Shown: positions 12,548 through 64,000 of the stretch, in pieces
How the letters are laid out: every line of letters starts with the position of its first letter
Numbering within the stretch: the stretch's first letter is position 1
Source: Actinomycetes bacterium
Lineage (GTDB): Bacteria; Actinomycetota; Thermoleophilia; RBG-16-64-13
NCBI GenBank assembly: GCA_024637095.1
Contig: JAGXFV010000032.1
Span: forward strand, 4,423-68,422
Direction of reading: 5' to 3'
DNA: 64,000 nt
Program-made: the position numbers and the translations under genes
The notes under the pieces: generated by a model
Seen by the model: only the letters and a program-made list of their open reading frames with translations
Told to the model about the DNA's origin: nothing
The model's database searches: none

Positions 12548-14377
12548 CTAGCGGTTGGCCGGGCGGGCGTCCCCGGGAAGGTCCTGAAAGCGCGTGTAAT
12601 TCTGGATGAAGGCCAGCTTGGCGTCGCCGATGGGACCGTTCCGCTGCTTCCCCACGATGATCTCCGCCACTCCCTTGTCCGGGCTATCCCGGTTGTAGAC
12701 CTCGTCGCGGTAGATGAACATGACCAAGTCTGCATCCTGTTCGATCGCGCCTGAATTGTGACTGACGATTCCATCGGCCAGCCAGCAGGAAGGCCCAGGG
12801 ACGGTCAGGTCGTAGACATCATCCTCACCCAGTTCAGTGACTTCCACGACCTCGTCCCAGAAGAGGTCATTCGAGACCAACCGCCGAAGCTCGGGATCAT
12901 CCAGGCCGGCGCCCTCCACACGATCGCCACGTGAAAGGTCCTTCACGTAGGCCCAATCGTCCGTCCCCATCAGCCGGTGCTCGCCGGTGGCCTTGATGCT
13001 GCGACCGCTGCCCAATCTCACTTCAAATACGGTTCGCTTCCCCACGCGCCAGACCCGATCCGCGAGCGCCGCGCGAAGGTGGCCTTGCTCCACGGCCCAC
13101 ACTTCCGGCGTCTGACCCACAAGGTCCCGCACGGGCACCCGTCGCCCATCAGACAGGCAAACCAGGGTGTCTCCGGTCACGCACTCCCTCAGATCCGAGA
13201 GCACCGGCCGGTTGCCCGCCCGCTGCTCGACCTGCCGGGAGAGCTGCGATAGGGCCAGCACGGGCACGCTCAGGTCACGAGCCAGGATCTTCAGTCCACG
13301 CGAAATCCGGGAGATCTCCTGCTGACGGTTCTCGATGCCCGAATCACCCACCATCAACTGCAGGTAGTCCACGATGATGAGGCCAAGATTCTTTTCCTTG
13401 GCCTTCAACCGGCGGGCCTTGGCCCGTATCTCCATCAGGTTGACCGAGGCGGTGTCGTCGATGTAGATCGGCGCCGTGAAGAGCGGGGTGCAGGCGGTGG
13501 TCAGCTTGGTCCATTCCTGCGATTGCAGCTGACCGTGCCGCAGCTTCTGGCTGTCGACGCGGGCCTCTGAGCACATCATCCGCTGGACCAGTTCCATCTT
13601 GGACATCTCGAGGCTGAAGAGCGCGACGCCCTTGCCTTGATCCACGGCCACGTTGCGGGCCACGTTGAGCGCGAAAGCAGTTTTGCCCATCGACGGCCGC
13701 GCGGCCAGGATCGCGAGCTGAGCCGGCTGAAAACCGGTGATCACGTCGTCGACCTGGCGAAATCCCGTCTCCACTCCGTCGGTGCGCCTGCCCTCGGACA
13801 TGATCTTCTCCAGTTGGAAGAAGCTGTCCGAGATCACTTCGCTGATGGGCGCGAACTCGCCGGAGACCCGGGTCTGGGATATATCGAATACCAGCTGCTC
13901 GGCCCGGTCGATGAGATCGACGGGCTCGCCCTCGCGTCGGTAGCCCAGGTCGGCAATCTGACTGCCCACCTCGATCAGCGACCGCAACATGTAGTTCTCG
14001 CGGATGATGTCCGCGTAGTGACGGGCGTTGGCCGCCGCGGGCACGGCCGAAGTCAGGCTGTGGATGTAGGCCTTGTCCCCGACCTCTTTTAGGACGCCCT
14101 TGTTGCTCAGCTGCTCGCTGACAGTGATCGGATCGACCGGCTCTCCCCGCGAGTAGATCTCCTCGATCGACTCGTAGATCAGCCGGTGAGTCCGCCGGTA
14201 GAACTGCTTCGGCTGCAGGATCTCGGTCACGGCGGGGATCATGTTGTTGGCCACCATCATGGCGCCAAGAACCGATACCTCCGCGTCGAGGTTCTGAGGG
14301 GGCAGATACTCCTGGCCGGAGCTCCTGCCCTCCCTTCCGCCGTCGCCGGACGGGCCGCGCTGTCCGTTCTCCGCCAA
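12548..14377 (-). CDS. dnaB: Replicative DNA helicase DnaB precursor containing a 143-aa mini-intein
   Basis: 609 aa against ~450 expected. Walker A (PSMGKTAF) and the H4 motif LSDLRE|...|SGAIEQDADLVMF are interrupted by an element running CVTGDTLV...IVSHN. Confidence 0.9.
   Translation of the reverse strand: MAENGQRGPSGDGGREGRSSGQEYLPPQNLDAEVSVLGAMMVANNMIPAVTEILQPKQFYRRTHRLIYESIEEIYSRGEPVDPITVSEQLSNKGVLKEVGDKAYIHSLTSAVPAAANARHYADIIRENYMLRSLIEVGSQIADLGYRREGEPVDLIDRAEQLVFDISQTRVSGEFAPISEVISDSFFQLEKIMSEGRRTDGVETGFRQVDDVITGFQPAQLAILAARPSMGKTAFALNVARNVAVDQGKGVALFSLEMSKMELVQRMMCSEARVDSQKLRHGQLQSQEWTKLTTACTPLFTAPIYIDDTASVNLMEIRAKARRLKAKEKNLGLIIVDYLQLMVGDSGIENRQQEISRISRGLKILARDLSVPVLALSQLSRQVEQRAGNRPVLSDLRECVTGDTLVCLSDGRRVPVRDLVGQTPEVWAVEQGHLRAALADRVWRVGKRTVFEVRLGSGRSIKATGEHRLMGTDDWAYVKDLSRGDRVEGAGLDDPELRRLVSNDLFWDEVVEVTELGEDDVYDLTVPGPSCWLADGIVSHNSGAIEQDADLVMFIYRDEVYNRDSPDKGVAEIIVGKQRNGPIGDAKLAFIQNYTRFQDLPGDARPANR
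12755..13183 (-). mobile_element. Mini-intein inside dnaB (no homing endonuclease domain)
   Basis: Block A is CVTGDTLVCL (Cys1 at 13181-13183). Block B is ATGEHRL. Blocks F/G are DDVYDLTVPGPSCWLADGIVSHN (Asn at 12755-12757), and the +1 residue is Ser. The insertion splits the conserved DnaB motif exactly. Confidence 0.85.
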
Positions 14378-14855: not shown

Positions 14856-15869
14856 TCATTCCTTCCATTCGTCGTCACGGCCCCCGGGCGGCCGCGAGAC
14901 CTCGCTCGCGGGCTTCCTGGCGGCCAGTCTTTTTCTGTAATCGAACCACGTGTCCAGCAATCCTGCCCAACTGGTGAGCGTAAGGACGAACTGCCCGAGA
15001 ACCGCCACCCCGTAGACGGCGGCGCGTCCGAAGCCGGTCATCTTCCTATTGAGTACAAACCAGTGAACCACCGCCAGGCCCTGGACGAAGTAGAGCATCT
15101 GGAAGAAGAGAAAGAGGTTGAGTCCGATGAGTTCCACCGTGCCGGCCGCGCTTCCGGTCCAGCTCGAGCCCACCAGCATACCGAGCCCGATGATGAAGCC
15201 ATAGGCAGCACCCCAGTGCAATCTGAAGGCCGAGAACGAACCTCCCGCCCGCGTTTCCTCGCCCAACCGCGGGAACACCAGCCCGGCCAGGGCGAGCGCC
15301 GCGCCCGCGAACAGCAGCGCGATGACTCCCAGAATGCTCGGAAGGAGATAGGGAACCAGCTCCACCACCTCTCGCACCTGCTCCGCTGCCGCGTCCACCG
15401 AAGCCTGCTCCATACCGGCAGCCACGTAGAGGTCCGAGGCCGAGGCCAAAGAGCGGTCGACCATCTCGCCCACCTGATCCGCATCCATTCCGGTCAGCAC
15501 CCAGGTGGCTCCACCGATTCCGGCGAGACCCACCGACACCACAGCCGTCAGGGACAGCAGGCTGGTGGACGAACGCCATCCCCGGGCCAACGCGGTGCCG
15601 AGCATGACGCCCGAGAGGCCGGCCAAGAAGGCCGCCAGCAGTCCGTTCAGCGGACCGGTCAACAGGCCGGTGAGAATGCCGGCGCCGATCGCGGCCGCGA
15701 TCCCGGTCTGCGCTCCGCGGCGCTTGGTGACGTAGGCGATCGGGAGGGGGAGCATGAAGATGAGCCCGGCTGACACCAGGGGCACGTAAACGGTGGCCAC
15801 AGTGAGGACTACGGCAAGGGCGATTGCCTTGCCCGCCTCGGTGACCCCGGAGGCCTCTAGTTCCTTCAT
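14856..15869 (-). CDS. DUF2232 (YybS-like) polytopic membrane protein
   Basis: 337-aa multi-TM protein in the conserved slot between rpsR and rplI. Confidence 0.5.
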   Translation of the reverse strand: MKELEASGVTEAGKAIALAVVLTVATVYVPLVSAGLIFMLPLPIAYVTKRRGAQTGIAAAIGAGILTGLLTGPLNGLLAAFLAGLSGVMLGTALARGWRSSTSLLSLTAVVSVGLAGIGGATWVLTGMDADQVGEMVDRSLASASDLYVAAGMEQASVDAAAEQVREVVELVPYLLPSILGVIALLFAGAALALAGLVFPRLGEETRAGGSFSAFRLHWGAAYGFIIGLGMLVGSSWTGSAAGTVELIGLNLFLFFQMLYFVQGLAVVHWFVLNRKMTGFGRAAVYGVAVLGQFVLTLTSWAGLLDTWFDYRKRLAARKPASEVSRPPGGRDDEWKE

Positions 15870-35386: not shown

Positions 35387-37393
35387 CTAGACCTCGTGCA
35401 GGCGGGCTTGGCGCTCGTAGCGGGCGGCCAGCCGCCGCTCCTCCCGCCGGTCCGGCCATAGCGCGATGAGTCCGCCGAGGGTGGCAACAATGCCCCCGAT
35501 CCAGAGCCAACTGGTCAGCGGGTTGACGCTGACGTCGACGGTGATGGTGGCGCCGTCCGGCGCTTCGTATTCCATCAGTGAGACGTAGACGTCACGCAGC
35601 AGAGTGCTGTGCCGGTCCACGCGGGTCCAGGGCTGGTCCTTGGCAAAATAGAACTCCCGCACCGGCTCTGCCGTACCCAGGAACTTACCGTCCTCCTCGA
35701 GGCGGAAGACCGCCTGACCCACCGACTTCTCGTCGGTGTTGAAGCTGGAGAATTCCTCATAGGTGACGGTGTAGTCGCCCACGGTCACCGCTTCGCCCTT
35801 GGCGAGCTGGACGTTCTGGGCCTTCTCCTGGAAGGAGTAGTGCCCGGTGACCCCGATCAGGAAGAGGATGACTCCGGCATGGACGATGTAGCCTCCGTAG
35901 CGCCGCTTATTCCGCCGGACCAGCGAGGTGAAGGCCTTGAAGATGTTGTCGCCGGTCATCTCGCGCCGCACCAGGGTTCCTCGGGCGAATTCCATAAAGA
36001 TGGTACCCAGCACGAAGGCCGAGAGGGTGAAGGCGATCAGAGCCCAGACGTGGGTCATCCCGAACGCCAAGAGGGCCACCAGTACCACGGCCGCGGTCCC
36101 GCCAGGGTACATGAAGTTCTTGCTAAGGTTGGCGAAGGTTGCCCTCCGCCACGCTATGAGCGGGCAGATACCGGTGAGGAACATAAAGACCAAACCGATG
36201 GGACGGATGACCGTGTCGAAGAAGGGCGGACCGACCGTCTGCTTGTCGCCGGTGATCGCTTCGCTGAGTATCGGCCACAGCACGCCCCAGAGGACAGTCC
36301 CGGCCATGCCCACGAGCAGCAGGTTGTTCATAAGGAAGCTGGACTCCCGCGACAGCAGGCTGTCCAACTCGTTACGCGACTTCAGCAGGTCGAGCCGGCT
36401 GAAGAGCAGGTTGAGGCTGAAGACCAGGGTCAGCGCCATGAAGGCTATGAAGTAGGGACCCACGCTGGCCTGCCCGAAGGAGTGCACCGAATTGATGATG
36501 CCCGAGCGCGTCAGGAAGGTGCCGAAGATGGTCAGGGTGAAGGTCATGATGATCAGGACGATGTTCCACACCTTCAGCATGTCCTTCTTTTCCTGGATCA
36601 TCACCGAGTGCAAGAAGGCGGTGCCGGTCAGCCAGGGCATGAACGAGGCGTTCTCGACCGGGTCCCAGGCCCAGAAGCCCCCCCAACCAAGGGTGACGTA
36701 AGCCCACCAGGCGCCGACCAGGTTTCCGATGGTCAGGAAGAACCATCCGGCCAGGGTCCAGCGTCGGGTGGAACGGATCCAGAAGTCGCCCAAACGCTTG
36801 GTGATCAGCGCGGCCATGGCGAACGCGAAAGGCACCGCAAAGCCAACGTAACCCAGATAGGTAGCCACCGGGTGGATCACCATCCCCGGATTCTCGAGCA
36901 TAGGATTCAAGCCGTTGCCCTGGGCGGGTGAGCCCATGGGGTTGGCCTCGAAAGGATTCGAGCCCTCGAAGGCGACCAGAAGCAGGCCGAAGAAGAGCGA
37001 AACCACCATGAGGACGGAGACCACGTAGGGGACCAGTTCCCGGTTCTTCACGCGGTTCTGGTAGACCACCGTGGCCGAAAATCCGGCGAGCAAGAGGAGC
37101 CACAGCAGCAACGAACCCGCGTTGCCGGCCCAGAAAGCCGAGAAAGTGTAGAAGCCGTTGAGATCGTTCGAGGTGTACTGCCACACGTAATAGTTCGAGT
37201 AATCGCGGGTCATCATGGCGATCCAAAGGACCACCGCCGCCACACCGACCACGGCGGCGAGCGCGTAGGCAGAGTGCAGCCCGCTCTGGATTAGGTCCCG
37301 CCGGCCCAGGCGCGCGCCAACCACGGGCATCACAGCGCCATAAGCGGCCAGCATGACCGCGAGCAGAAGGGCCGTGTAACCGATTTGATTCAT
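35387..37393 (-). CDS. ccmF: Cytochrome c-type biogenesis heme lyase CcmF
   Basis: 668 aa, polytopic, with a WWD domain and the conserved His residues. Confidence 0.9.
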   Translation of the reverse strand: MNQIGYTALLLAVMLAAYGAVMPVVGARLGRRDLIQSGLHSAYALAAVVGVAAVVLWIAMMTRDYSNYYVWQYTSNDLNGFYTFSAFWAGNAGSLLLWLLLLAGFSATVVYQNRVKNRELVPYVVSVLMVVSLFFGLLLVAFEGSNPFEANPMGSPAQGNGLNPMLENPGMVIHPVATYLGYVGFAVPFAFAMAALITKRLGDFWIRSTRRWTLAGWFFLTIGNLVGAWWAYVTLGWGGFWAWDPVENASFMPWLTGTAFLHSVMIQEKKDMLKVWNIVLIIMTFTLTIFGTFLTRSGIINSVHSFGQASVGPYFIAFMALTLVFSLNLLFSRLDLLKSRNELDSLLSRESSFLMNNLLLVGMAGTVLWGVLWPILSEAITGDKQTVGPPFFDTVIRPIGLVFMFLTGICPLIAWRRATFANLSKNFMYPGGTAAVVLVALLAFGMTHVWALIAFTLSAFVLGTIFMEFARGTLVRREMTGDNIFKAFTSLVRRNKRRYGGYIVHAGVILFLIGVTGHYSFQEKAQNVQLAKGEAVTVGDYTVTYEEFSSFNTDEKSVGQAVFRLEEDGKFLGTAEPVREFYFAKDQPWTRVDRHSTLLRDVYVSLMEYEAPDGATITVDVSVNPLTSWLWIGGIVATLGGLIALWPDRREERRLAARYERQARLHEV

Positions 37394-37421
37394 GAAGCTA
37401 GATCCTCCCTACCGCTCTTGT

Positions 37422-42268: not shown

Positions 42269-42463
42269 ATGAAGCTCGCCCAGGTCGACTACGCTCTTTG
42301 CCGCTCCTGCGACAAATGCGCCGCCCGTAAATCCTGCCGCACCAAGGCGCTGATCCAAATGGATCGCGGTGAGCCGGCGATCGTAAAGACGGGGGATTGC
42401 ATGGGCTGCGGCGACTGCGTGCCGGCCTGCCCGCACCAGGCGATCAAGATGAAAGAGAGCTAG
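42269..42463 (+). CDS. Small 2x[4Fe-4S] ferredoxin
   Basis: Internal ATG of the 98-aa ORF, then CRSCDKCAARKSC...CMGCGDCVPACP. Confidence 0.5.
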   Translation: MKLAQVDYALCRSCDKCAARKSCRTKALIQMDRGEPAIVKTGDCMGCGDCVPACPHQAIKMKES

Positions 42464-42499
42464 GCTCCCCCTCAGAGCTAGCCTCCGCCCCCTTCAGAG

Positions 42500-44071
42500 C
42501 TAGCCTCCGCCCCCTTGGCCGATCAACTGCAGCAGGCGCTCCTCGCCAAGTGGCCCTGGCGGCGCCACTTGGCCGTTCACCACGAGCGTCGGCACGGTGG
42601 ACACCCGATAGCGCTGAGCCACCTCGGGGAACGCCGTGGCGGCGATCATGTCCGCGGTCACGTGAGGCGAGGCCATGGCGAAGCGGTGAACCAGCCGTAC
42701 GACCCCGGGGCAGTTGGGGCAGGTGGGGGTCACCAGCACTTCGAGATGAACCGGCTCCGTCAATCCGGCCAAGCCCTCGTGGGTCTGCTCGCTCAGCCTA
42801 AACTCGCCGCGCGAGACGTCCATTACGTCATCCAGAAAGGCGCCGAACTCGTAGCCCGCAGGTACCCCATAGAAACGGATGCGGGGATGCTGATCGCTCT
42901 CCTTGCCGATGAGAGTCGCGGGGATGCGCTCGACGCCCAGGTCCTCGGCCCGTTCATGATCCTGCAGGAAGTCCAGCAACTCGAGTTCGAGCTTGGGAGA
43001 TAGCCCCGCGAACTCACTCAGCAGACGTCGGGCTTCTTCACACTCGTGACAGGCGAGGCTGGACATCTCGGAGTCCGACAATTGGGAAAAGTGCACCAGC
43101 CTCACCGGATCCACCAGCTTTCCCAGGATCCGAGACAGATTGGCTCGATCCTCCGAGGTGATGGCCTGCGGCTCTTCCGGCCGTCCGCCCTCCCGGCTGC
43201 GGGCGAATCTCACGGCGCTGAGGGCTGCGACCTGCCCTTCTCCCACCGCCTTCGCGATCTGGTAAGGCTCTCCAACGGAGTCACCCGCAGCGAAGATCCC
43301 GGGGATGCCGGTCTCCATCATACGGTTGACCTTGATGTGCCGGCCCTCGAACTCGAGCCCGTCCACCAGGGTCGACGGGGAGACACTCTCCCGGAAGATG
43401 AACACCCCATCGGCCACGAGCTCCCGTTCCGGCAGCACGACGTGGACCTTCATCCCTTCGCGGTACAGGCGGTCCGGCCGCTGCCGGGGAAGGACCTCGA
43501 CCTCGGCGGGAAGCTCGTAAGGCCCTTCGTACAGCGGGATGAACTTCACCTGACAGCCCATATCCTCGGCCAGGGCAGCAGCTTCCTCCTCACCTTCCTG
43601 GGCGTAGCTGATGAAAGCCACCTCGCGTCCGGCGTACAGGCGGCCGTCGCAGTTGACACAGTAGCTGACGCCCATGCCCACCAGATCGTCCTCGCCCTCG
43701 AGGGTCGAGCCCCGGTAGACCCCGGGCGCCAGGATGATTGCCTGGGCGTGATAGTTATCCCGGTCGGTGGAGACCATCAACTCGTCCTCGCCGGGAAGAA
43801 TGCGCGTCACCCGTTCTTTGAGCAGGGTCACCTCGAAGCGTTCCAGATGCTCGAGAAAACTCTCGGCGAGTTCCTCCCCGGTGGTGAAGGTGAAGCCCGG
43901 ATAGTTGGGGATATGCGGCGCACGTCGGGTCTTCGAAAAGGGCCGCAGCGCGTCGAACACCGCCACCGTGCGTTTGCGGTTGGCCACATTCATAGCGGCG
44001 GAGAGGCCCGCCGGTCCCGCGCCTACCACGATCACGTCATAGCCCGACGATTTGCTCTCAGGAGTGGTCAC
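42500..44071 (-). CDS. Thioredoxin-reductase-like flavoprotein fused to C-terminal thioredoxin/PDO-like domains
   Basis: GTG at 44069-44071 behind GAGGTGA. YDVIVVGAGPAG, a TrxR-like redox-active SYCVNCDG, then thioredoxin-fold segments carrying LACHEC and TPTCPNCP. Confidence 0.6.
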   Translation of the reverse strand: MTTPESKSSGYDVIVVGAGPAGLSAAMNVANRKRTVAVFDALRPFSKTRRAPHIPNYPGFTFTTGEELAESFLEHLERFEVTLLKERVTRILPGEDELMVSTDRDNYHAQAIILAPGVYRGSTLEGEDDLVGMGVSYCVNCDGRLYAGREVAFISYAQEGEEEAAALAEDMGCQVKFIPLYEGPYELPAEVEVLPRQRPDRLYREGMKVHVVLPERELVADGVFIFRESVSPSTLVDGLEFEGRHIKVNRMMETGIPGIFAAGDSVGEPYQIAKAVGEGQVAALSAVRFARSREGGRPEEPQAITSEDRANLSRILGKLVDPVRLVHFSQLSDSEMSSLACHECEEARRLLSEFAGLSPKLELELLDFLQDHERAEDLGVERIPATLIGKESDQHPRIRFYGVPAGYEFGAFLDDVMDVSRGEFRLSEQTHEGLAGLTEPVHLEVLVTPTCPNCPGVVRLVHRFAMASPHVTADMIAATAFPEVAQRYRVSTVPTLVVNGQVAPPGPLGEERLLQLIGQGGGG

Positions 44072-44213
44072 GTCTTCACCTCGTCCGTGCGAATGGTTCC
44101 TGTCGCTTCTACCCGCGCGGAAGAGGGCGAAAAACGGGGAGGCGGGCCGAGCCCGCCTCCCCGTCGTTTTCCGACGTTCTCCTTTGGGGCCGCCACATCT
44201 CAGGGATCGGGGG

Positions 44214-44837
44214 TCAGGCCCCGCTCTCCTCGACCACGCGACCAGTCTCATCCACCGATTGCCAGTAGCAGCCCGTGAACATCGCGCGCGTCCGGGCGAG
44301 GGGCTGCATCAGCACCAGGTAGATGTGCACCAGCGTGAAGGACACGAACACCCAGGCAATTAGGAAGTGGATCTGCCGGGCGGTCATGAGTCCCCCGAAC
44401 AAGTCCACCAACCAGAAGAGCCGGGTCGGCCAGTAGAGGGCGAAGCCGACCAGCACCATAACCGCGGAAAGGACGAACAGCAGCAAGTAGGTGATGATCT
44501 GCAACGGGTTGTACTTTCGCAGATGGATGTTCTCGTCCGTTATGAACAGGTAGTACTTGAGAGAGTTGCCCAGCCCCGACATGTTGCGCGGAGTGGGCCC
44601 TGCCTGAGACCACTTGCCGCTGGCGAAGAACTGATAGATGTGAAACAGCCCTATGAACACGAATAGGTACATGTCCACGAAGTGCACCCAGCGGGCGTTG
44701 TTCATACTGCCGAACACGTTGAACTCCGGCCAGTGGATCTGAAACCCGGACAGTACCAGCAGCACGGTGTTGGCGAGGTGGATCCAATGGCCGGTGCGCT
44801 CAATGGGATCGTGATAGCAAAGCAGCTGGCGTTTCAT
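44214..44837 (-). CDS. [NiFe] hydrogenase b-type cytochrome membrane subunit (HyaC/HupC family)
   Basis: 207 aa with four TM helices and conserved His ligands. Immediately downstream of the large subunit. Confidence 0.8.
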   Translation of the reverse strand: MKRQLLCYHDPIERTGHWIHLANTVLLVLSGFQIHWPEFNVFGSMNNARWVHFVDMYLFVFIGLFHIYQFFASGKWSQAGPTPRNMSGLGNSLKYYLFITDENIHLRKYNPLQIITYLLLFVLSAVMVLVGFALYWPTRLFWLVDLFGGLMTARQIHFLIAWVFVSFTLVHIYLVLMQPLARTRAMFTGCYWQSVDETGRVVEESGA

Positions 44838-44849
44838 GGCTCCCCTTCC

Positions 44850-46487
44850 TCACCGCACCTTGAAGTCGAGAACCCGGTTGCTCTTCGGTTCAATCACGTG
44901 AACCGAGCACGCCATTCAGGGATCGAAGCTGTGCAGGGTGCGCAACACCTCCAGCGGCCGCTCCGGGTCGGCCACCGGCGTGCCCACCAGCGCCTCTTCC
45001 ACCGGTCCCCGGATGCGCTCGGCCGTCATCCGCGGTGAGAAGTTCCAACCGGACGGGGTGATCACCGAGTAGTGGCTGACCACGCCATCATCCAATTCAA
45101 CCCAATGCGAGAGTGAACCCCGAGGCGCATCCCAGCCGCTGAAGCCACGACCGCTGGGGTTGTCCGGGAAGGGCTCGAAGAAATCGAGGTCCCCACCCTT
45201 CATGTTCTCGCGCAGAGCCGCGACATAGGCCAGAGTCTGATCGGCCACCAGTTGGATCTTGAGCGTGCGGGCGGCGATCCGTCCGAGATTGGAGAAGAGC
45301 ACCGGGATGTTGCCGGCCTGGCCGACGGCGGCCAGGGTGTTGTCCACCATCTGCTTGGCCGGATGGGAGTCTCCATGGACCAGGTAGGCCATCAACATCT
45401 CCGCCAGGGGGCCGACTTCGCACGGCACGCCCTTGAGTGTCGAACCGCGATCCCAGGCGTAGCGGTCCAGTCCCGCCACCTCGGTGATGCCGTGAGGGCC
45501 GGTGAAGTCCGGCCTTTGCTTGGCCTCGTAGGGATGCATGTCGTCGAAGGGCTCCTGCCAGGTGCTTGTGTACCAGACGCGCACATCCTCCAGTTGGTCG
45601 ACAGGCTGAACGTCGAGGTTGCCCTCCAGCGCACCGATGACAGCGCCCTGGGGGAAGAAGCGGTTCTCGGGCCGGCCTTCCTCCATGTCGTTCCAGTCGA
45701 GCACACCCCAACTGAAGTAGTTGCCGTGGCCCTGCCCTATGGTCGCCTGGTCCAGGTAGTAGGGGGCGATGGCCAGCAGGTCGGGAACCATCTTGTTGTC
45801 GATGAAGTCCTTGACCTGCTGCACCTTGAAGGCATAGCGGTTGATCTGCTCCTCATGGGGGACCGAGGACCAGCCGCCGGGCGGAGTCGACATATGGTGC
45901 GGGAACTTGCCCCCGAAGACGGCGAAGGCCTCCGAGGCCGTAGCCTGAATGGAGACCGATTCGAGATAGTGTGCAGCCAGTTGCAGGTTGAGCTCGGGAG
46001 GCAAGGTGTAGGCCGGATGATCCCAGTAGCCGCTCTCCAGGAAGCCGAGTTGGCCGGAATCCACGAAGGCCTGCAGCCGCCGTTGCACCGTTTGCAAACC
46101 CTCAGAGGAGGCCTGTGCCCCGAGCGCGCTGGGCACGTTTACGTAATCCAGGCCGTTCAGGACGTAGAACCAGAGCACGTGGTCGTGGAGCAACTGCCCG
46201 CACTCGAGCAGGTTGCGCATCAGGCGGCCGTTCACGGGGATGTTCACGCCCGCCGCGTCTTCCAGAGCGAAGGCGGAGTTGTGGCCGTGCGGCGCTGGGC
46301 ACACTCCGCAGATCCGCTCGGTGTAGTGCTGAGCGTCATACCAGGGTCGGCCTTCGACGATGGTCTCCATGCCGCGGAAGAGCGTGCTGCACGTCCAGGC
46401 GTCCGTCACCACTCCGTTCTCCACCTCTACCTCTACGTGAAGGTGGCCCTCGATGCGGGTGACCGGGTCGATGATGATCTTCGGCAT
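44850..46487 (-). CDS. [NiFeSe] hydrogenase large subunit, with TGA (Sec) at 44916-44918 in the C-terminal DP-U-MAC-SVH motif and a 15-aa protease-cleavable tail
   Basis: N-terminus RICGVCPAPH (the L1 motif). The ORF stops at ...LRTLHSFDP, and the same frame continues TGA-MACSVHVIEPKSNRVLDFKVR-TGA. This recreates DPUxxCxxH exactly. Confidence 0.85.
44886..44905 (-). promoter_or_regulatory. bSECIS-like hairpin 11 nt downstream of the hydrogenase UGA
   Basis: RNA: UGA-AUGGCGUGCU-CGGUUCA-cgugau-UGAACCG. This is a perfect 7-bp stem beginning at +11 with a G/U-containing loop. Confidence 0.5.
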
Positions 46488-53409: not shown

Positions 53410-53700
53410 GTGACTCAAGCCCCCGAAGAGATCTTTCGCGTCATCACCTATCAAACCACCCACCAGGCCATGGCCGCCGAGGAAGTGCTTCATGATGCCG
53501 CCGTGACCTTCGAGGTGGTCCCCGCACCGGAAGAGGTGAGCGCCGGGTGCGGACTCGCCCACCGGCTTCGAGAGAAGGACCTGGATGCGGCGATCGCGAT
53601 CCTACGGGACGCCGGAGCGGACTACGACCGCGTGGTCGTTCCGACCCGGGGTTTTCGGCAGAGCCAAGACAGATTTGGCCAAGGCCGGATGGTAGAGTAG
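53410..53700 (+). CDS. DUF3343 (putative Se/S carrier-like) protein
   Basis: GTG start. 96 aa. FRVITYQTTHQAMAAEEVL...VPAPEEVSAGCGLAHRL fits the DUF3343 pattern, including the conserved CG. Confidence 0.55.
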   Translation: MTQAPEEIFRVITYQTTHQAMAAEEVLHDAAVTFEVVPAPEEVSAGCGLAHRLREKDLDAAIAILRDAGADYDRVVVPTRGFRQSQDRFGQGRMVE

Positions 53701-53881
53701 GCAGAGGAACCAGTCCGAGACGAGGAGTGTCCCCATCAGCTTCTTCGATCCCAACCGCCAGAATCGCGACCCGGAAGAAGAGCCAAACGGAGGTTTCCCT
53801 CAACGCCCCAACCTCTTCAGCATGATCTCTTGGATGTGGAATCGGCGCCGGGAATCCAAGCCCGGGGGTAAACGCCCGACG

Positions 53882-56701
53882 ATGTCCCGCCGCCGCCGTC
53901 TGCTAATAGCCGCAATCGGTTTGTTGCTACTCGTCCTGTTCTCTCTGACGACTATTGCCACGCTCTGGACCGACCTGCTGTGGTATCAGGAGCTGGGCTT
54001 CGAAGGGGTCTTCTGGACGCGCATAGAGGCCTGGGCTGCTGTCGCCGCCGCCGCCGGCCTGATCTTCGCGGTGATCTTCTTCATCAACCTCTACCTGGCT
54101 CGTCGGCTCTCGCCCAAGATCCGCGTTATGGGCCGCGTGAACGACGAGGAGATAGTCGAACTCGTCCCGCTCAGCGATCGCCGAGCTTTGGGGATCATCG
54201 CCGGGGTCACCGCTGTGTTCACTCTGCTGTTCGCTCTGGGAGCGGGCAGCACCTGGAGGACGGTCCTCCTCTACCTCAACCAGGTCGACTTCGGCTACGA
54301 GGACCCTCTCTTCGGCCTGGACGCGTCGTTCTTCGTCTTCACCCTGCCTTTGCTCGAAGCGGCCTCGACCTTCCTCTGGATGACGCTGCTTCTCACTATC
54401 CTGGGCACTGCCGCGGTCTACGTGTTCGACCAGGCGGTATCCATCGAGAACGAGCGCAGCCTGAAACTGGCCCCCCACGTCAAGGGACACCTGTCGGTGC
54501 TCGCCGCTCTGGCCCTCCTGCTGGTGGCCTTCGGCTATGTTATGGATGCCTGGCGTCTCGACTTCTCCCTGCGGGGAGTGAGCTTTGGGGCCAGCTACAC
54601 CGATGTGAATGCCCAACTGCCCGTGCTCTACATCCTGGCGGCCGTGGCCGCGGTCTCCGCGCTCATCTTGCTGGTAAACATCTATTACCGGGGCTGGCGT
54701 CTCCCCGCCGCAGCCATCGCCCTGCTCGCCGTGGTCTGGCTTCTCGCCGGCCAGATCTATCCCGCCTTCGTGCAGCAATACCAGGTCTCACCCAACGAAA
54801 TCGAGGCGGAGGACGAGTACATCGCCTCGAACATCGAGGCCACCCGGTTCGCCTACGGGCTCGAGCGGGTGACGGTGAGGGAATTCTCGGCGGAGGAAAC
54901 GCTCGAGTACGCCGACGTGACCCGCAACGCGGAAACGATCGACAACATACGGCTCTGGGATCCGCGCCCGGCGCTCGACACCTACTCGCAGCTACAGGAA
55001 CTGCGGATCTATTACGACTTCCAGGACGTCGATATCGACCGCTACGACATCGACGGCAACTACCGTCAGGTCCTGGTGGCCGCGCGCGAGATGAACCAGA
55101 GCCAGCTGCAGGCCCAGGCACAGACCTGGGTGAACCAGCACCTGACCTATACACACGGCTACGGAGTCGTGGCCAGTCCCGTAAACGAGGTCCGCGGCGA
55201 GGGCCTGCCGGTGTTCTTCGTGCAGGACATCCCCCCGCGGAGCGTCACCGACCTCGAGATAACCCAACCCGCCATCTACTACGGCGAGGCGGGAGCGGAT
55301 TACGTTCTGGTGCGGACCACGGCCCGAGAGTTCGACTACCCCCAGGGCGATCAAAACGTGTACGTGGACGACTACTCGGGGCGAGGTGGTGTTTCGGTGG
55401 CATCGCTTCCCCGCCAAGCCGCCTTCGCGCTGCGCTTCGGGACACTTAAGCTGATGCTTTCGGAGTACCTGACCGAAGACTCCCGCTTGATGTACCGTCG
55501 TACCCTGCAGGAGAGGGTGCCCGAGGCGGCCCCCTTCCTCCAATACGACCGCGATCCCTACATGGTGGTGCGCGCCGACGGCAGCCTCGCCTGGATCTGG
55601 GACGCCTACACCACCACCGACTACTTCCCCTACTCCCAACCCCGCAGCGCCGGCTACAACTACATACGCAACTCAGTAAAAGTCGTGGTGGACGCCTTCA
55701 ATGGTGATGTCACCTATTACTTGATGGACGAAGCGGATGCCGTGGCCAACACCTGGGCCAACGTCTTTCCCGATCTGTTCACCCCCGGGTCTGAGATGCC
55801 GGATGACCTGCGGGCCCACATCCGCTATCCGGAGGATCTCTTCACGGTGCAGTCCGAGGTACTGTCGCTCTACCACATGCAAGATCCACAGGTGTTCTAC
55901 AACAAGGAAGACGCCTGGGAGATCCCCATGGAGCAGTACGCCGGCGAGACCGTACCGGTGGTGCCCTATTACGTGATCATGGGGCTGCCGGGCGGTCAGG
56001 GCGAGGAGTTCCTCCTGCTGCGCCCGTTCACTCCTTTACAGAAGCAAAACATGATTTCCTGGCTGGGGGGCCGCTCGGACGGCGAGAACTACGGCGAGCT
56101 GGTGCTTTTCAGCTTCCCCAAGGACAAACTGATCTACGGACCAGCGCAGGTGGAAGCCCGGATCTCCAACGATCCCGCGATCAGCGAACAGGTGACCCTG
56201 TGGGACCAGGCGGGCAGCCGCGTGATCCGGGGGAACCTCCTGGTCATTCCCATCGAGGATTCCATCCTCTATGTGGAGCCGCTCTATCTGCAGGCCGAGC
56301 AGAGTCCCATCCCCGAACTCAAGCGGGTGATCGTAAGCTACGGCGACCGGGTGGTCATGGCGGAGGATCTCCAGGGTGCGCTGGAAGACATCTTCGACCA
56401 AGAGAGCCCGCCGGCCACGGTCACCACGGCGACGCCCGGCACCACCACCACTGAGCCCGGCGATAACACCACCACTGAGCCCGGCGCCACGACCACCACG
56501 GAAGCCGCCACTACCGGCACCACCGTTCCCGGAGGCGAGTTGCCCAGCGATGTCGACGCTCTGATCGCCCTGGCCGACCAGCACTACCAGGCCGCTGAGG
56601 CGGCGCAGCGCGAGGGAGACTGGACGACCTACGGCGAGGAAACCGAGGCGCTGGGACAGGTGCTCGAGCGTCTGCAGACTCTGGCCGGAAGCCAGGGCTA
56701 G
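53882..56701 (+). CDS. UPF0182-family large membrane protein
   Basis: ATG at 53882 behind GGGGGTAAA (the ORF runs from 53822). Six or seven N-terminal TM helices, then a ~650-aa extracytoplasmic domain and a Thr/Pro-rich low-complexity tail. Confidence 0.75.
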   Translation: MSRRRRLLIAAIGLLLLVLFSLTTIATLWTDLLWYQELGFEGVFWTRIEAWAAVAAAAGLIFAVIFFINLYLARRLSPKIRVMGRVNDEEIVELVPLSDRRALGIIAGVTAVFTLLFALGAGSTWRTVLLYLNQVDFGYEDPLFGLDASFFVFTLPLLEAASTFLWMTLLLTILGTAAVYVFDQAVSIENERSLKLAPHVKGHLSVLAALALLLVAFGYVMDAWRLDFSLRGVSFGASYTDVNAQLPVLYILAAVAAVSALILLVNIYYRGWRLPAAAIALLAVVWLLAGQIYPAFVQQYQVSPNEIEAEDEYIASNIEATRFAYGLERVTVREFSAEETLEYADVTRNAETIDNIRLWDPRPALDTYSQLQELRIYYDFQDVDIDRYDIDGNYRQVLVAAREMNQSQLQAQAQTWVNQHLTYTHGYGVVASPVNEVRGEGLPVFFVQDIPPRSVTDLEITQPAIYYGEAGADYVLVRTTAREFDYPQGDQNVYVDDYSGRGGVSVASLPRQAAFALRFGTLKLMLSEYLTEDSRLMYRRTLQERVPEAAPFLQYDRDPYMVVRADGSLAWIWDAYTTTDYFPYSQPRSAGYNYIRNSVKVVVDAFNGDVTYYLMDEADAVANTWANVFPDLFTPGSEMPDDLRAHIRYPEDLFTVQSEVLSLYHMQDPQVFYNKEDAWEIPMEQYAGETVPVVPYYVIMGLPGGQGEEFLLLRPFTPLQKQNMISWLGGRSDGENYGELVLFSFPKDKLIYGPAQVEARISNDPAISEQVTLWDQAGSRVIRGNLLVIPIEDSILYVEPLYLQAEQSPIPELKRVIVSYGDRVVMAEDLQGALEDIFDQESPPATVTTATPGTTTTEPGDNTTTEPGATTTTEAATTGTTVPGGELPSDVDALIALADQHYQAAEAAQREGDWTTYGEETEALGQVLERLQTLAGSQG

Positions 56702-59009: not shown

Positions 59010-61289
59010 CTACATGTGGCAGATATGGCAGTCGGTGAGGAAGCGTCCTTCCGGAGGGTCCTCTCCCCACAGCGTGGTTTCCTCGAGGGCGTCCTCCGGG
59101 GGATCCTCGTAGAGAGCGTAGTCGGCCGTCTTGTGACACGCCAGACAGAAACCCATATTGAGATCTTTGGCCGGCGAGCGCACGGTGGTCAGTTTGCCCA
59201 CATCGCCGTGGCAGCGCTCGCACTGGACTTCGGCAACCACCACGTGCGCGCGGTGGTTGAACACCACGAAATCGGGCTGGTTGTAGACTCTCTTCCAGGA
59301 TACCTGGGTGCCGTTGTTGTAGGCATCGAGCACGGCCTGGGTAGCTTCGGTCTGAGTGGAGATCCACTGATGACAGCCCGCGCAGAGCTCGAGGGGCGGC
59401 AGGTCGGCTGCCGGCCCGCGCCGCGCCGAGGCGTGGCAGAAGAGGCAATCCACTCCGCGATCCACGTGCGCCTTGTGGGTGAAGGGCAACTCCTCCGAGC
59501 CCTCGGCCGTCCGCGCACCGCCGGCGCCCGCCCCCCCTGTCGGCTCGGTAGGCTCCGACCCCGGCGCGGTGGTTTCGGTCACGCCTGCCTCCGTAGTCTG
59601 GGTCCCGCCGTCTGTGGGTTCTGTGGCCGGCCCACCCGGCTGCCAAGAGCGCAGCAACTCGACGAACGAAGCGATTTCCTCTCCCGACAGGGTTCCGCCG
59701 AAGGGAGGCATAGGTGTGCCCGACCGGCCCTGCTCGATCAACTGCTGCAGATCCCCGTCCGAGGCCTGCTGCACGAACTGGTTTTCCTGGAGCGCAGGGC
59801 CGATGCCCCCGCCCGCCCCCTCGGCGCCGTGGCAACTAGAGCAGTTCTGTTCGAAGAGGTTCCCCGCCGCCTCGAGGTTGGCGGTGCCGGCCTGAGCCAG
59901 CATGATCCTGGGGCTCTCATTCCGGTTGACCGCCCGCCGGGGCAGATTATTGGGCACCCCGCGCACCCGCGTATTCGCCACTAGGCTCCACTCGACTACG
60001 GCCAACCGGCGGTCTCCACCTGAGGGAGCAGCCCGCTCGCCGTCCAGGGTAGAGGTCCCGCTCTGCCAGCTATCGAGCAGGGCGATCACCGCCGTGATCT
60101 GCTGATCCGTCAGCCGACCGGCGAACGGCGGCATGGGTGTCCCGGCCCTGCCCTGCTCGATCAACTGCCGCAGCACGTCTTCCGTTGCCTGCTGCACCCA
60201 TTGATTCTCCTTCAGGGCGGGTCCGATGCCTCCCCCTGCGCCCTCCTCCCCGTGGCAGGTGGCGCAGTTCTGCGTGAAGACCTCCTGACCGGTTGCGATC
60301 AGGTCTCCTCCGAGTTCGGTGGTGGTCGTCGCCGAGGGCGCCGCCGTGGTCGTGGTCTGCCCGGACGGCGCCGTGGTGGTCGTGCTTCCCGGGGCGCCGG
60401 GTGTATCGACCCCCGATTCCAGCAGGCGGCGGCGGGTCTCCTCGATGGCGACGGGACCTTCGCGTTGGAGCAGCTTGAGGAACTCGGCCATGCCGGCCGC
60501 TTCCTCTTGGCTCAAGTAGCCGGAGAATGAGGGCATGCCCTGGCTGGTCCGGCCCGCGATGATGATCCCGGCGATGTCCTCGACCGCGGCATCGGTGATG
60601 AAAGCCGAGGGATAGAGCGCCGGCCCCAAGGCTCCTCGCCCGGAGGGGCCGTGGCAGGTAGCGCACTGCAGGTTGTAGAGCAGAGCCGCCCGCTGAGTGG
60701 GACTTCCCTCGGCCTCAGGCGGCGGGCCGGTGGTCACGCTGCGCAGGTAATTGACCACATGCCAGCGCCCTTCCCTCTCGAGGTTCCAATCCAGGGCGGG
60801 CATCCGCCCGAACCCTTCTCCGATAACGGTGTAGATCTGACCATCGGGCAGATCCACCACCCGCTCACCCAGATCGGGAGGGGAAGGCTGGAAGAGTTCG
60901 CCCACGGGTCCGGGCGCGCCGGCTCCGGGTTCGCCGTGACAAAGCATGCAGTAGATGCCGTAAGCATTCTCGCCGCGCGCCAGGGACTCCACCGTGTACG
61001 AAACCGGGTTAACCGGAAGCCCGAGAGCTTCGGCGGCCACCGGTCCCTGAAAGGGTATGGCTTCGGCGGGCGACACCAACCGGGGCGGTTCGACGTAGCC
61101 CAGGCTTGGCTGCTCCGCCAGTTCGTTCGGCAGGGGGATCAGGCAACCGGTGAAGATCTGCGCGATCATGAAGACCAGCAGACCGACCACGAGCACCGCG
61201 CCGATCAGCTTGCCCCAACCCGTCCACGCAGGGGGTTCGGGGCGGCGGCGGACGGCCTGTTCCCGGGACGGATCCGACGCGGGGCTCAC
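59010..61289 (-). CDS. Nonaheme c-type cytochrome: four class-I monoheme domains fused to a C-terminal ActA-like pentaheme domain
   Basis: N-terminal TM helix. Monoheme sites CMLCHG, CATCHG, CATCHG, CSSCHG. Pentaheme sites CLFCH, CAGCH, CERCH, CLACH, CHICH, with FTHKAHV / FNHRAHV motifs. Confidence 0.7.
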   Translation of the reverse strand: MSPASDPSREQAVRRRPEPPAWTGWGKLIGAVLVVGLLVFMIAQIFTGCLIPLPNELAEQPSLGYVEPPRLVSPAEAIPFQGPVAAEALGLPVNPVSYTVESLARGENAYGIYCMLCHGEPGAGAPGPVGELFQPSPPDLGERVVDLPDGQIYTVIGEGFGRMPALDWNLEREGRWHVVNYLRSVTTGPPPEAEGSPTQRAALLYNLQCATCHGPSGRGALGPALYPSAFITDAAVEDIAGIIIAGRTSQGMPSFSGYLSQEEAAGMAEFLKLLQREGPVAIEETRRRLLESGVDTPGAPGSTTTTAPSGQTTTTAAPSATTTTELGGDLIATGQEVFTQNCATCHGEEGAGGGIGPALKENQWVQQATEDVLRQLIEQGRAGTPMPPFAGRLTDQQITAVIALLDSWQSGTSTLDGERAAPSGGDRRLAVVEWSLVANTRVRGVPNNLPRRAVNRNESPRIMLAQAGTANLEAAGNLFEQNCSSCHGAEGAGGGIGPALQENQFVQQASDGDLQQLIEQGRSGTPMPPFGGTLSGEEIASFVELLRSWQPGGPATEPTDGGTQTTEAGVTETTAPGSEPTEPTGGAGAGGARTAEGSEELPFTHKAHVDRGVDCLFCHASARRGPAADLPPLELCAGCHQWISTQTEATQAVLDAYNNGTQVSWKRVYNQPDFVVFNHRAHVVVAEVQCERCHGDVGKLTTVRSPAKDLNMGFCLACHKTADYALYEDPPEDALEETTLWGEDPPEGRFLTDCHICHM

Positions 61290-61849
61290 GAAGGCTCCCG
61301 TTCGATCACCAGGGCTTCTCCCTCAAGGCGCTCGGCCTCGAAGTCCTCGATCGGCAGAATGCGTGCTCCTTCCTCGCTCAGCGCCGCGCGAATACGGCCC
61401 TCGACCATGTCGGGAGGCACCTGCACGATCAGCACGTGTCCGTCGATGTCGGCCGGAATCACCCAGTCTCGCAGGGGATCCTTGCGGATGCGGTTCTCGT
61501 AGACAAAGCCGACAAAGGTCATGATGACGAGTCCCAGGATCGTCAGCTCGTACACGATGACAAAAACCGGCGGCGAAATGACCGCCTGGCTGCCCACGAT
61601 CAGCGGATAGAGTAGCAGCGTGCCCACCGAAAGGAAGAGACCGAGCGCCAGCCCGCCCACCAGCCCAAGCGAGGTGAAGAGCGGCAGACGGGTGTCGGAG
61701 GTCTCGCCCCCCATGAGCGAAGGCGGGTAAGGAATGTCGGTGAGCAGTTCGATCCGCTTTCGCGAAACCCCCATTCGAGACAGACGGCGCATGGCCCGGG
61801 CGATGCCCTCTGGGCCTTCGATCACCGCAAAGATGACTTCCCCGCTCAC
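61286..61849 (-). CDS. ActD-like (DUF3341) membrane subunit of an Alternative-Complex-III-type quinol oxidoreductase
   Basis: GTG start overlapping the upstream stop (GTGA). VSGEVIFAVIEGPEG...YPLIVGSQAVISPPVFVIVYELTILGLVIM fits the DUF3341 pattern. Confidence 0.5.
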   Translation of the reverse strand: MSGEVIFAVIEGPEGIARAMRRLSRMGVSRKRIELLTDIPYPPSLMGGETSDTRLPLFTSLGLVGGLALGLFLSVGTLLLYPLIVGSQAVISPPVFVIVYELTILGLVIMTFVGFVYENRIRKDPLRDWVIPADIDGHVLIVQVPPDMVEGRIRAALSEEGARILPIEDFEAERLEGEALVIEREPS

Positions 61850-63448
61850 GCGGGCACCTCTTCTGGGCGATTCTCGGACGGGGGCGGAGATGCGCCCCGC
61901 GGCTCCTGCGCCGGCTCGGTTTCTCCTTCGACAATCCCCTGGGTGCGCCACTTGTCCAGCCGCCAGCCCTCCTTGACCTCCCACAGGGAGACGAAGGGCA
62001 GCGCCTTGGAAAGGGCCACGTAGAGGAAGGCGAACATGGCGAAGGTCGCCGCGGCGATGATTATCTCGGGCAGCGCCGGGGTGTAGTCGCCCCAGTCGAA
62101 CGGCAAATGGTTACGCACGTTGGAGCCCACCACGATCAGGAAGCGTTCGATCCACATCCCCATGTTGATCAGAATCGTGATCACCAGCATCGCAGGAAGC
62201 GAACGACGTACCCGCTTGAACCACAGCGTGAAGAAGGGCAGCAGCACGTTCACAACCACCATGAACCACCAAAGCGGCGCCATGGCCCCGAAGATGTGCA
62301 GATGCTCGAGCTCCCGGTCTACCGGATTGCCTCCGTACCAGTTGGTCAGCGTCTGGGCAAAGAACATGTAGAACCAGATGACCGACACGGCCAGGAGGAT
62401 CAGGCCCAGCCGGTCGAAGTGGAATTTGGTGATGTAGTCCTGCAGGCCGAGCCCGCGCCGGACGAAGATGAGCACCGTGATCAGCGCCGCGACGCCGGAG
62501 TAGATGGCTCCGATCACGAAATAGGGAGCGAAGATGGTGCTGTGCCAGCCCTCGTTGGTGGTCATGGCGAAATCCCACGACACGATCGAGTGCACCGAGA
62601 CCGCCACCGGGATGATCACGATGGTGTAGACCTTCATCGCCAGATGCAGCCGGTGCCACTGCTGCTGCGATCCCCGCCAACCCAGCGCCAGCACACCGTA
62701 GATACGCCGCCGGATGCCGGTGGTGCGGTCCCGCGCCGTGGCCATGTCCGGAATCATCGGCATGAAGAGGAAGAGGGCGCTCGAGGTCATGTAGGTCAGG
62801 ATGGCCACCAGGTCCCAAACCAGGGCCGAGTGGAAGTTGGGCCAGAGCTCGCGGACGTTAGGGTAGGGGATCATGAAGTAGAACTTCCAAACGCGGCCCA
62901 GATGAATAAGAGGGAAAAGGGCGCCCACCATCAGGCTGAAGAGGGTCATGGCCTCGGCTCCGCGGGTCAACGGGCGCCGCCACTCTACGTTCAAGACGCG
63001 CAGGATGGCCGAGATCAGCGTGCCCGAGTGGCTCACCCCGATCCAGAACACGAAGCTCGTGATGTAGAAGCCCCAGAAGACGGGACGGTTGATGCCCGCG
63101 ACGCCGATGCCGGCGAAGATCTGGTAGAGCCAGGCGCCGAACAGCGAAGCCGCCCCCATGCCCAGCACGGCGGCCAGCAGCAGATACCCCGCACCGACTC
63201 GGGTCATCGAGCGAAGTACGATCCCGTCGAGCGCCGCGTCCATCCGAGCCAGCTCTTCCTCGGTGGGGGGCACGTCCTCGATGGTTCCGTCGGCGACGGC
63301 GTCCTGAAGCGTTGAGTAAGCGCCCGGTTCGTGGCGTTCGTCCTGATGCTCGTAGGCGAGCTGCCGTTCGGCCTCGGGGACCGCCTCTTGCCCTAGGCCG
63401 CGAGTGGGACCGCCTGAGTAGCGGGGAAGCCTTGCCCAGTTTGGGAGC

Positions 63449-63468
<20 letters not shown>
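61846..63468 (-). CDS. NrfD/PsrC-family polytopic membrane quinol-interacting subunit (ActC-like)
   Basis: 540 aa with about ten TM helices and a family-typical loop pattern. Exact start uncertain (20-bp overlap with the upstream gene). Confidence 0.8.

Positions 63469-64000
<532 letters not shown>

Follow-up and report, generated by a model that had tools for sequence, protein, structure and literature searches.

What interrupts the replicative DNA helicase gene dnaB in this Thermoleophilia bacterium, and can a normal helicase still be expected from it? The question arises in a 64,000-nucleotide stretch of contig JAGXFV010000032.1 (the window throughout this text), where dnaB lies on the minus strand at 14377..12548 and its open reading frame (ORF), starting with TTG, encodes a precursor of 609 aa plus a stop codon. 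The gene is identified from the ORF list, from Pfam matches to DnaB (N-terminal domain) and DnaB_C, from the NCBIfam profile TIGR00665 (DnaB; 560 bits for the 609-aa protein) and from synteny, as the last-but-two gene of a conserved cluster in the order rpsF-ssb-rpsR-DUF2232-rplI-dnaB. DnaB_C gives one match, over residues 201-599, that is interrupted by an insert of 143 aa (DnaB residues 399-541; 12755..13183, minus strand) standing in frame between the motifs LSDLRE and SGAIEQDAD. We are highly confident that this insert is a canonical class-1 mini-intein, with a HINT fold and no homing endonuclease, in the H4 motif of DnaB between Glu398 and Ser542. A preliminary description of this DNA had proposed a 143-aa mini-intein here. 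Its coordinates prove to be exact, on the minus strand, with intein profiles above their cut-offs and an exact empty site of 429 nucleotides; its estimate that DnaB is about 160 aa longer than usual has to be lowered to 143 aa, the intein-free allele being 466 aa long.

The empty site is the strongest evidence for the intein. The 90%-identity cluster that holds the window's DnaB includes members of 466 aa (609 - 143 = 466) with exteins 98% identical, and the intein-free proteins P0272, P0273 and P0277 are without exactly residues 399-541, in the same synteny. The same holds for DNA: the intein-free locus L004 has the same rpsF-ssb-rpsR-DUF2232-rplI-dnaB-pabB-like-aminotransferase order, and its alignment to the window leaves a gap of exactly 429 nucleotides, equal to codons 399-541. 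The junction reads ...AGG GAG/TCC GGC... in L004 and ...AGG GAG[TGC GTG...CAC AAT]TCA GGC... in the window. The same 609-aa protein was met in NCBI, JGI and Logan assemblies made independently of one another, and the insert is not an assembly artefact.

Joined together, the two flanks make an uninterrupted helicase. The N-extein (13184..14377, minus strand; residues 1-398, placed by alignments and a translation check) ends in ...RPVLSDLRE directly before the insert, with Glu398 as the -1 residue, and the C-extein (12551..12754, minus strand; 68 aa) runs SGAIEQDADLVMF...PANR. The sequence right after the insert is SGAIEQDADLVMFIYRDEVYN..., and its first codon, TCA (12752..12754, minus strand, from the junction DNA alignment), encodes Ser+1, the presumptive C-extein nucleophile. 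An extein-only alignment to uninterrupted DnaB, which the preliminary description had recommended, is gapless across the junction both for the 466-aa alleles and for Geobacillus DnaB (2R6A/4ESV; 454 aa), where the two parts are joined directly and the insertion would fall between E382 and S383. In alignments of the intein-free relatives, LSDLRE-SGAIEQDAD is likewise uninterrupted. The contiguous flanking motifs (LSDLRE/SGAIEQDAD) and the terminal Asn with a nucleophile after it (HN/S), on which the preliminary description had staked its reading, are thus both in place. Two side observations belong to this junction. Intein-free dnaB genes with exteins 98-99% identical are found in L004 (3001-4401) and L005, which come from other metagenomes. 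Ser+1 is encoded by TCA in the two alleles with an intein and by TCC in the empty one; given a GC content at third codon positions (GC3) of about 0.85 in this genome, a codon ending in A may have come in with the intein, as a marker of it.

Does the insert itself look like an intein? Three profiles exceed their cut-offs: PF14890 (Intein_splicing; residues 407-541) with 62.4 bits against 35.8, TIGR01445 (intein N-terminal) with 45.7 against 24.5, and TIGR01443 (intein C-terminal) with 27.4 against 15.6. When all PDB chains were searched with phmmer, the DnaB mini-intein of Synechocystis sp. PCC 6803 (Ssp; 6FRG, 6FRH, 1MI8) matched residues 2-142 with E values of 5e-27 to 4e-26 and that of Nostoc punctiforme (Npu; 4O1R) matched with 1e-20, with GyrA, RadA and RecA inteins far behind. 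The minus-strand translation of 12755-13183 reads CVTGDTLV...ATGEHRL...GPSCWLADGIVSHN (143 aa), and the reverse-complement reading of the insert runs CVTGDTLVCLSDG...KATGEHRL...DVYDLTVPGPSCWLADGIVSHN; the plus-strand reading of the same interval contains a stop codon and was rejected.

The conserved splicing blocks, all on the minus strand, were compared with 109 complete family members, and here the opening Cys, the TxxH of block B and the closing Asn followed by Ser, all pointed out beforehand, are present and conserved. Block A (CVTGDTLVCLSDG; 13145..13183) begins with Cys1, the predicted nucleophile for the N-S acyl shift, and its C1, G4 and G13 are invariant or near-invariant. Block B (SGRSIKATGEHRLM; 12968..13009), recognised from the translation and the family alignment, contains TxxH in the form T66-G-E-H69, with T66 shared by 103 members and H69 by every one. 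Block F (GEDDVYDLTVPGPSCWLA; 12776..12829) holds the conserved Asp125 (108 of 109), and block G (DGIVSHN; 12755..12775), covered by the TIGR01443 match, ends with the penultimate His142 and terminal Asn143, found in all 109, at a junction that reads ...IVSHN/S. The catalytic set C1, T66, H69, D125, H142 and N143 falls on invariant or near-invariant columns throughout.

The HINT fold is shared with other modules of the Hint superfamily, and it might be asked whether the insert is one of these: a bacterial intein-like (BIL) domain, an intein of class 3 or a split intein that has become fused. The structure was modelled with AlphaFold2 from 13 related mini-inteins; the mean predicted local distance difference test score (pLDDT) is 91.7, with residues 91-110 as the sole weak stretch (pLDDT 74-75). 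A Foldseek search of the PDB with this model ranks DnaB mini-inteins first, at template modelling (TM) scores of 0.87-0.89 (1MI8: TM 0.88, root-mean-square deviation 1.4 Å); Hedgehog, BIL and class-3 structures appear lower in the ranking. Identity, however, is 32-36% to the class-1 DnaB inteins, the best matches, and 11-18% to BIL, Hedgehog and class-3 structures. The insert moreover has Cys1 and a canonical HN/S junction, occupies a host motif that is invariant and for which there is an exact empty site, and is encoded in one contiguous ORF. We find it barely conceivable that it is anything but an intein in the strict sense. Since Cys1 is present and the conserved block-F position is occupied by Asp, not by the Cys of class 3, it belongs to class 1 and not class 3: Cys1 and Asp125 stand where class 3 would have its Trp-Cys-Thr triplet, with a block-F Cys at F:4. 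The M. smegmatis DnaBi1 intein and the M. leprae DnaB class-3 mini-intein (6BS8) resemble ours in being natural mini-inteins in DnaB, but they occupy the P-loop site and carry the class-3 WCT triplet; 6BS8 matches the window's model in Foldseek at 15-16% identity and TM 0.70. Nothing contradicts the mini-intein reading.

How, then, would a helicase be made? Both the activity and its chemistry are predicted here from the established class-1 mechanism. The whole 609-aa precursor would be translated first, and the 143-aa HINT domain would then excise itself. An N-S acyl shift at Cys1, aided by Thr66 and His69, would turn the Glu398-Cys1 peptide bond into a thioester; attack by Ser+1 on this thioester would give a branched ester intermediate; Asn143, aided by His142 and the block-F Asp125, would form a succinimide and release the intein; and an O-N shift would finally produce a normal Glu398-Ser peptide bond in a 466-aa DnaB reading ...LSDLRESGAIEQDAD.... 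H4 is both the DNA-binding loop of DnaB and an intein site, according to PMC4760082 and PMC6195587. Because the insert splits this loop, the precursor would be expected to be inactive and splicing to be obligatory for replication. For annotation, this means that the mature helicase should be taken as 466 aa, not 609 aa.

Autocatalytic splicing to ligated exteins is likewise suggested by the intact catalytic residues, by the essential nature of the host gene, and by the ratio of non-synonymous to synonymous substitution rates (dN/dS). Compared between the window and L002, whose lineage (L002/L003) has an intein 82% identical to the window's and exteins about 97% identical, the extein has dS 0.20, dN 0.011 and dN/dS 0.057, and the intein dS 0.43 (± about 0.08), dN 0.10 and dN/dS 0.24. 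The intein thus appears to be under purifying selection, much weaker than that on the helicase.

Several points weigh against this account of a functional intein. Splicing activity is a prediction from sequence. Position 76 is Asp here and Gly in 97 of the 109 relatives. The block-F His that the Ssp DnaB intein uses is Ser132 in the window, and Ser in the window's intein family; since this position is variable across the whole family, that His is evidently dispensable. An intein-free second copy of dnaB could also lie outside the visible 64 kb. The insert might accordingly be read as a splicing-dead relic, a HINT domain tolerated as a permanent insertion or made harmless by DnaB from another copy, and the loss of the endonuclease, a non-synonymous rate about 9 times that of the extein and the unusual Asp76 would all suit such a relic. 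We nevertheless consider it very unlikely. The catalytic residues are all intact, a dN/dS of 0.24 speaks of constraint, and none of the four 609-aa alleles carries a frameshift or a stop. The insert furthermore sits in the H4 DNA-binding loop (PMC4760082, PMC6195587) of an essential gene, and this gene is the only dnaB seen in the canonical rplI-dnaB position.

If the intein does splice, is splicing regulated? A domesticated conditional switch, with redox, temperature or single-stranded DNA modulating splicing and thereby gating helicase activation, would have a precedent in the conditional-splicing role proposed for the M. smegmatis DnaBi1 intein (PMC6195587). The position in the DNA-binding loop, which probably leaves the precursor inactive, and two further cysteines in the intein, C9 and C133, would also be in keeping with it. 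C133, however, is not conserved (the nearest mini-inteins read GS, AN or SS there), C9 is variable, and Ser+1 excludes a disulfide trap between C1 and C+1. Lineages with 98-99% identical exteins also include alleles that lack the intein, which the host can therefore do without. We therefore judge a switch improbable, and favour a canonical intein without such a role.

Which of the DnaB intein sites is occupied? When the query was extended into the exteins, SGAIEQD followed the window's intein and SIEQD the Ssp intein, and HMMER placed a two-residue gap between them. With a caret marking the insertion, this alignment puts the insertion at RE^SG in the window and at RESG^S in Ssp DnaB, the former lying two residues upstream (RE^SGAIEQ against RESG^SIEQ). 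The window's intein has the DLRE^SGxIEQDAD context of the DnaB H4-site family at RE^SG and is not an Ssp/Npu-type allele (RESG^S). The preliminary description had placed it in the motif that hosts inteins in cyanobacteria, Rhodothermus and actinobacteria, which holds at the level of the H4 motif and fails, for the classic examples, at the level of the residue. Novikova et al. 2016 (PMC4760082) give three DnaB intein sites, with two, a and c, in H4 and two residues apart; the catalogued inteins at a and c are class 1 (PMC4760082; Kelley et al. 2018, PMC6195587), and the window's intein occupies one of the two. The searches made turned up no intein at RE^SG with experimental characterisation. 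The letter of the window's site would probably be 'c', since Msm DnaBi2 and the Mtu DnaB intein are called 'a' and the latter is, we assume, at RESG^S.

Apart from the insertion point, the Ssp and Npu DnaB mini-inteins have much in common with the window's: the DnaB host, the H4 motif, the class-1 chemistry (C1, TxxH, block-F Asp, HN, Ser+1) and the HINT fold, at 32-36% identity and TM 0.87-0.89. The window's mini-intein is naturally small, unlike the Ssp one, which we take to be an engineered deletion of a 429-aa intein. Closer still are the LAGLIDADG-containing DnaB inteins of about 421 aa from Thermoleophilia and other Actinomycetota (among them P0009-P0013, P0018 and P0119; NCBIfam PRK07773-type), which interrupt DnaB at the same point, LSDLRE^SGAIEQ. 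Their splicing domains are 60-64% identical to the window's, and their exteins 54-70% over the whole protein; the N-terminal lobe of the window's intein aligns to PRK07773 positions 398-490. They keep an endonuclease of about 279 aa (PF14528) between the lobes, where the window has a linker of 17 residues.

Where did the endonuclease go? Pfam finds no LAGLIDADG or other endonuclease match in the insert; PF14528 is absent here and present in relatives of 850-881 aa, and the earlier statement that the element has no endonuclease domain is borne out. In the alignment, the roughly 279 extra residues of the long inteins fall exactly at the window's linker, VEGAGLDDPELRRLVSN (12869..12919, minus strand), which is probably a deletion scar and is the one part that the structural model renders with low confidence. 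A whole-protein database search returned nearest relatives in three forms: DnaBs with a mini-intein (573-609 aa), DnaBs with a long intein (850-881 aa) and intein-free DnaBs (about 456 aa), those with names being metagenome-assembled genomes labelled 'Thermoleophilia bacterium' or 'Actinobacteria'. The coexistence of the three forms fits the picture of a homing cycle. The ancestor would have been an intein of about 421 aa whose LAGLIDADG homing endonuclease targeted the same site, and its deletion would have left the 17-residue linker. With the endonuclease deleted, the element could not home by itself; it would persist since anything short of precise loss would destroy a gene that the cell cannot do without.

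A homing endonuclease encoded out of frame has been reported for a cyanobacterial dnaX intein (bioRxiv 10.64898/2026.09.14.751524), and the same arrangement was considered here and ruled out. The longest alternative stop-free stretch in the mini-intein, out of frame or antisense, is 105 codons; comparison of the window with L002 shows none of the alternative-frame ORFs to be conserved, and ORFs of 91 aa and 58 aa have no Pfam match.

Loss of the endonuclease seems to have happened more than once. In a neighbour-joining tree of splicing domains (no support values), mini-inteins are scattered among the 421-aa inteins, with P0012 beside P0015 and P0019, P0036 beside P0075 and P0105, and P0007 beside P0042, and the deletion end-points in the alignment differ between mini-inteins. 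Both features suggest that the endonuclease was lost repeatedly and independently. The window's intein and that of P0002, a DnaB 94% identical, have the same scar, and loss in this pair would thus predate their split.

How widespread is the family? A search with the intein alone gave 3,199 matches at E ≤ 1e-3. Among the best 150 cluster representatives examined, the junction is RE^SG in 93 and RESG^S in 30, and the lengths of complete inteins form a continuous range from 134 to 430 aa. A scan with one genome per species found a relative in at least 581 genomes, from Cyanobacteria, Gamma-, Beta- and Deltaproteobacteria, Myxococcota, Acidobacteriota, Gemmatimonadota, Deinococcota, Actinomycetota, Chloroflexi, Planctomycetes and Thermotogae. 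At all 73 resolved loci the junction is DLRE^SG, and 71 of them hold mini-inteins of 133-204 aa. Some relatives are much longer than a DnaB carrying a single intein would be, namely P0121, P0127, P0166, P0199, P0202 and P0212, at 1,280-1,480 aa; larger still are P0222 (5,631 aa, 8 stretches matched by the intein query) and P0244 (2,788 aa, 6 stretches). These over-long relatives match in 4-8 separate stretches and are presumably multi-intein DnaBs, the largest presumably being other giant multi-intein proteins. Within the window, phmmer and a family hidden Markov model, run on all six-frame ORFs, detected an intein in dnaB only.

Can an intein without an endonuclease still move? One reading is that it is still passing between close Thermoleophilia populations independently of its host gene, and we raise it as a possibility that is probably wrong. 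Transfer could take place through homologous recombination, or through copying into empty sites cut in trans by the LAGLIDADG endonuclease of full-length inteins at the same site. It is hinted at by the presence of intein-plus and intein-free alleles in lineages about 5% diverged in DNA, and by an intein dS twice that of the extein (0.43 vs 0.20). A further hint is composition: GC3 is 0.727 in the intein (exteins 0.86), and none of 109 stretches of equal size from eight neighbouring genes goes that low (minimum 0.734). A last hint is that intein similarity appears to be decoupled from host similarity, identity to the window's intein levelling off at 58-65% for hosts with an ATPase domain 52% identical and 88% identical alike. 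GC1 and GC2 of the intein are higher, and with an overall GC of 0.64, equal to the flanks, bulk composition gives no sign of foreign origin; GC3 alone differs. Window, L002 and L004 are about equally distant (94-96% nucleotide identity), and per-gene dS values among them give conflicting nearest pairs, leaving gain and loss of the intein undistinguished. A search for co-conversion tracts found the 45 nucleotides on each side of the junction at background divergence (about 5%). Should the intein prove to be mobile, it would exemplify how an intein can persist in nature outside the classical homing cycle, the question that has been posed for the dnaX intein of cyanobacteria (bioRxiv 10.64898/2026.09.14.751524).

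What does the element add? It is ordinary, a further case of a widespread and well-described intein family in an H4 region whose two-site situation was already known. Its general biological weight is small: DnaB is the commonest bacterial intein host, with 317 inteins, 202 of them in Actinobacteria (PMC4760082 and PMC6195587), and the same residue is occupied in the species-level genomes counted above. The proposed use as a lineage marker is weak. The intein is patchy among near-identical lineages, with intein-free alleles at 98-99% extein identity and an intein similarity that does not follow the host, and this makes it a poor deep lineage marker. Protein engineers could test it as a further natural class-1 intein of compact size, having Cys1, Ser+1 and Glu at -1. 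Of mild interest is that an intein without an endonuclease is present in some and absent from other lineages that have diverged by about 5%. The trio formed by the window, a 94%-identical allele with an 82%-identical intein and an intein-free allele could serve population genetics as a small natural data set on the persistence, loss or exchange of such inteins.

The surroundings of dnaB yielded a number of minor observations. The cluster rpsF-ssb-rpsR-rplI-dnaB usually lies near the replication origin. In the window (1-64000), about 47 of 54 credible genes (GC3 filter) are on the minus strand and GC skew is negative in all 2-kb bins but four, as would suit a leading-strand region near the origin in which genes are strongly co-oriented. 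Scans of the 64 kb for tRNA and Rfam families found none. Between rpsR and rplI lies a gene for a DUF2232 (YybS-like) membrane protein (14856-15869, minus strand), with no GdpP-type phosphodiesterase gene adjoining it; Firmicutes likewise have a DUF2232 gene between rpsR and rplI. For rpsF (L001 385-720; just upstream of ssb in the window), comparison with L002 and L004 gives a dN/dS of about 0.8-1.1 at dS 0.026, a small sample, and its neighbours have 0.01-0.3; a variable C-terminal tail may be the cause.

Further along, the minus strand carries a set of respiratory and redox genes (35387-37408, 42500-44308, 44916-46487, 59010-61322 and 61846-63570) that comprises CcmF, a pyridine-nucleotide-disulphide oxidoreductase-thioredoxin fusion, a [NiFe]-hydrogenase large subunit, a 770-aa multi-haem c-type cytochrome and an NrfD-like membrane subunit. 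A UPF0182 protein of 1,001 aa is encoded on the opposite strand (53696-56701, plus strand). At 42456-42516 there is a short tandem repeat of a 22-nucleotide unit, in 2.3-2.7 copies that match by up to 96%. It borders the oxidoreductase-thioredoxin ORF on the upstream side and extends over the initial bases of the stop-free frame of that ORF.

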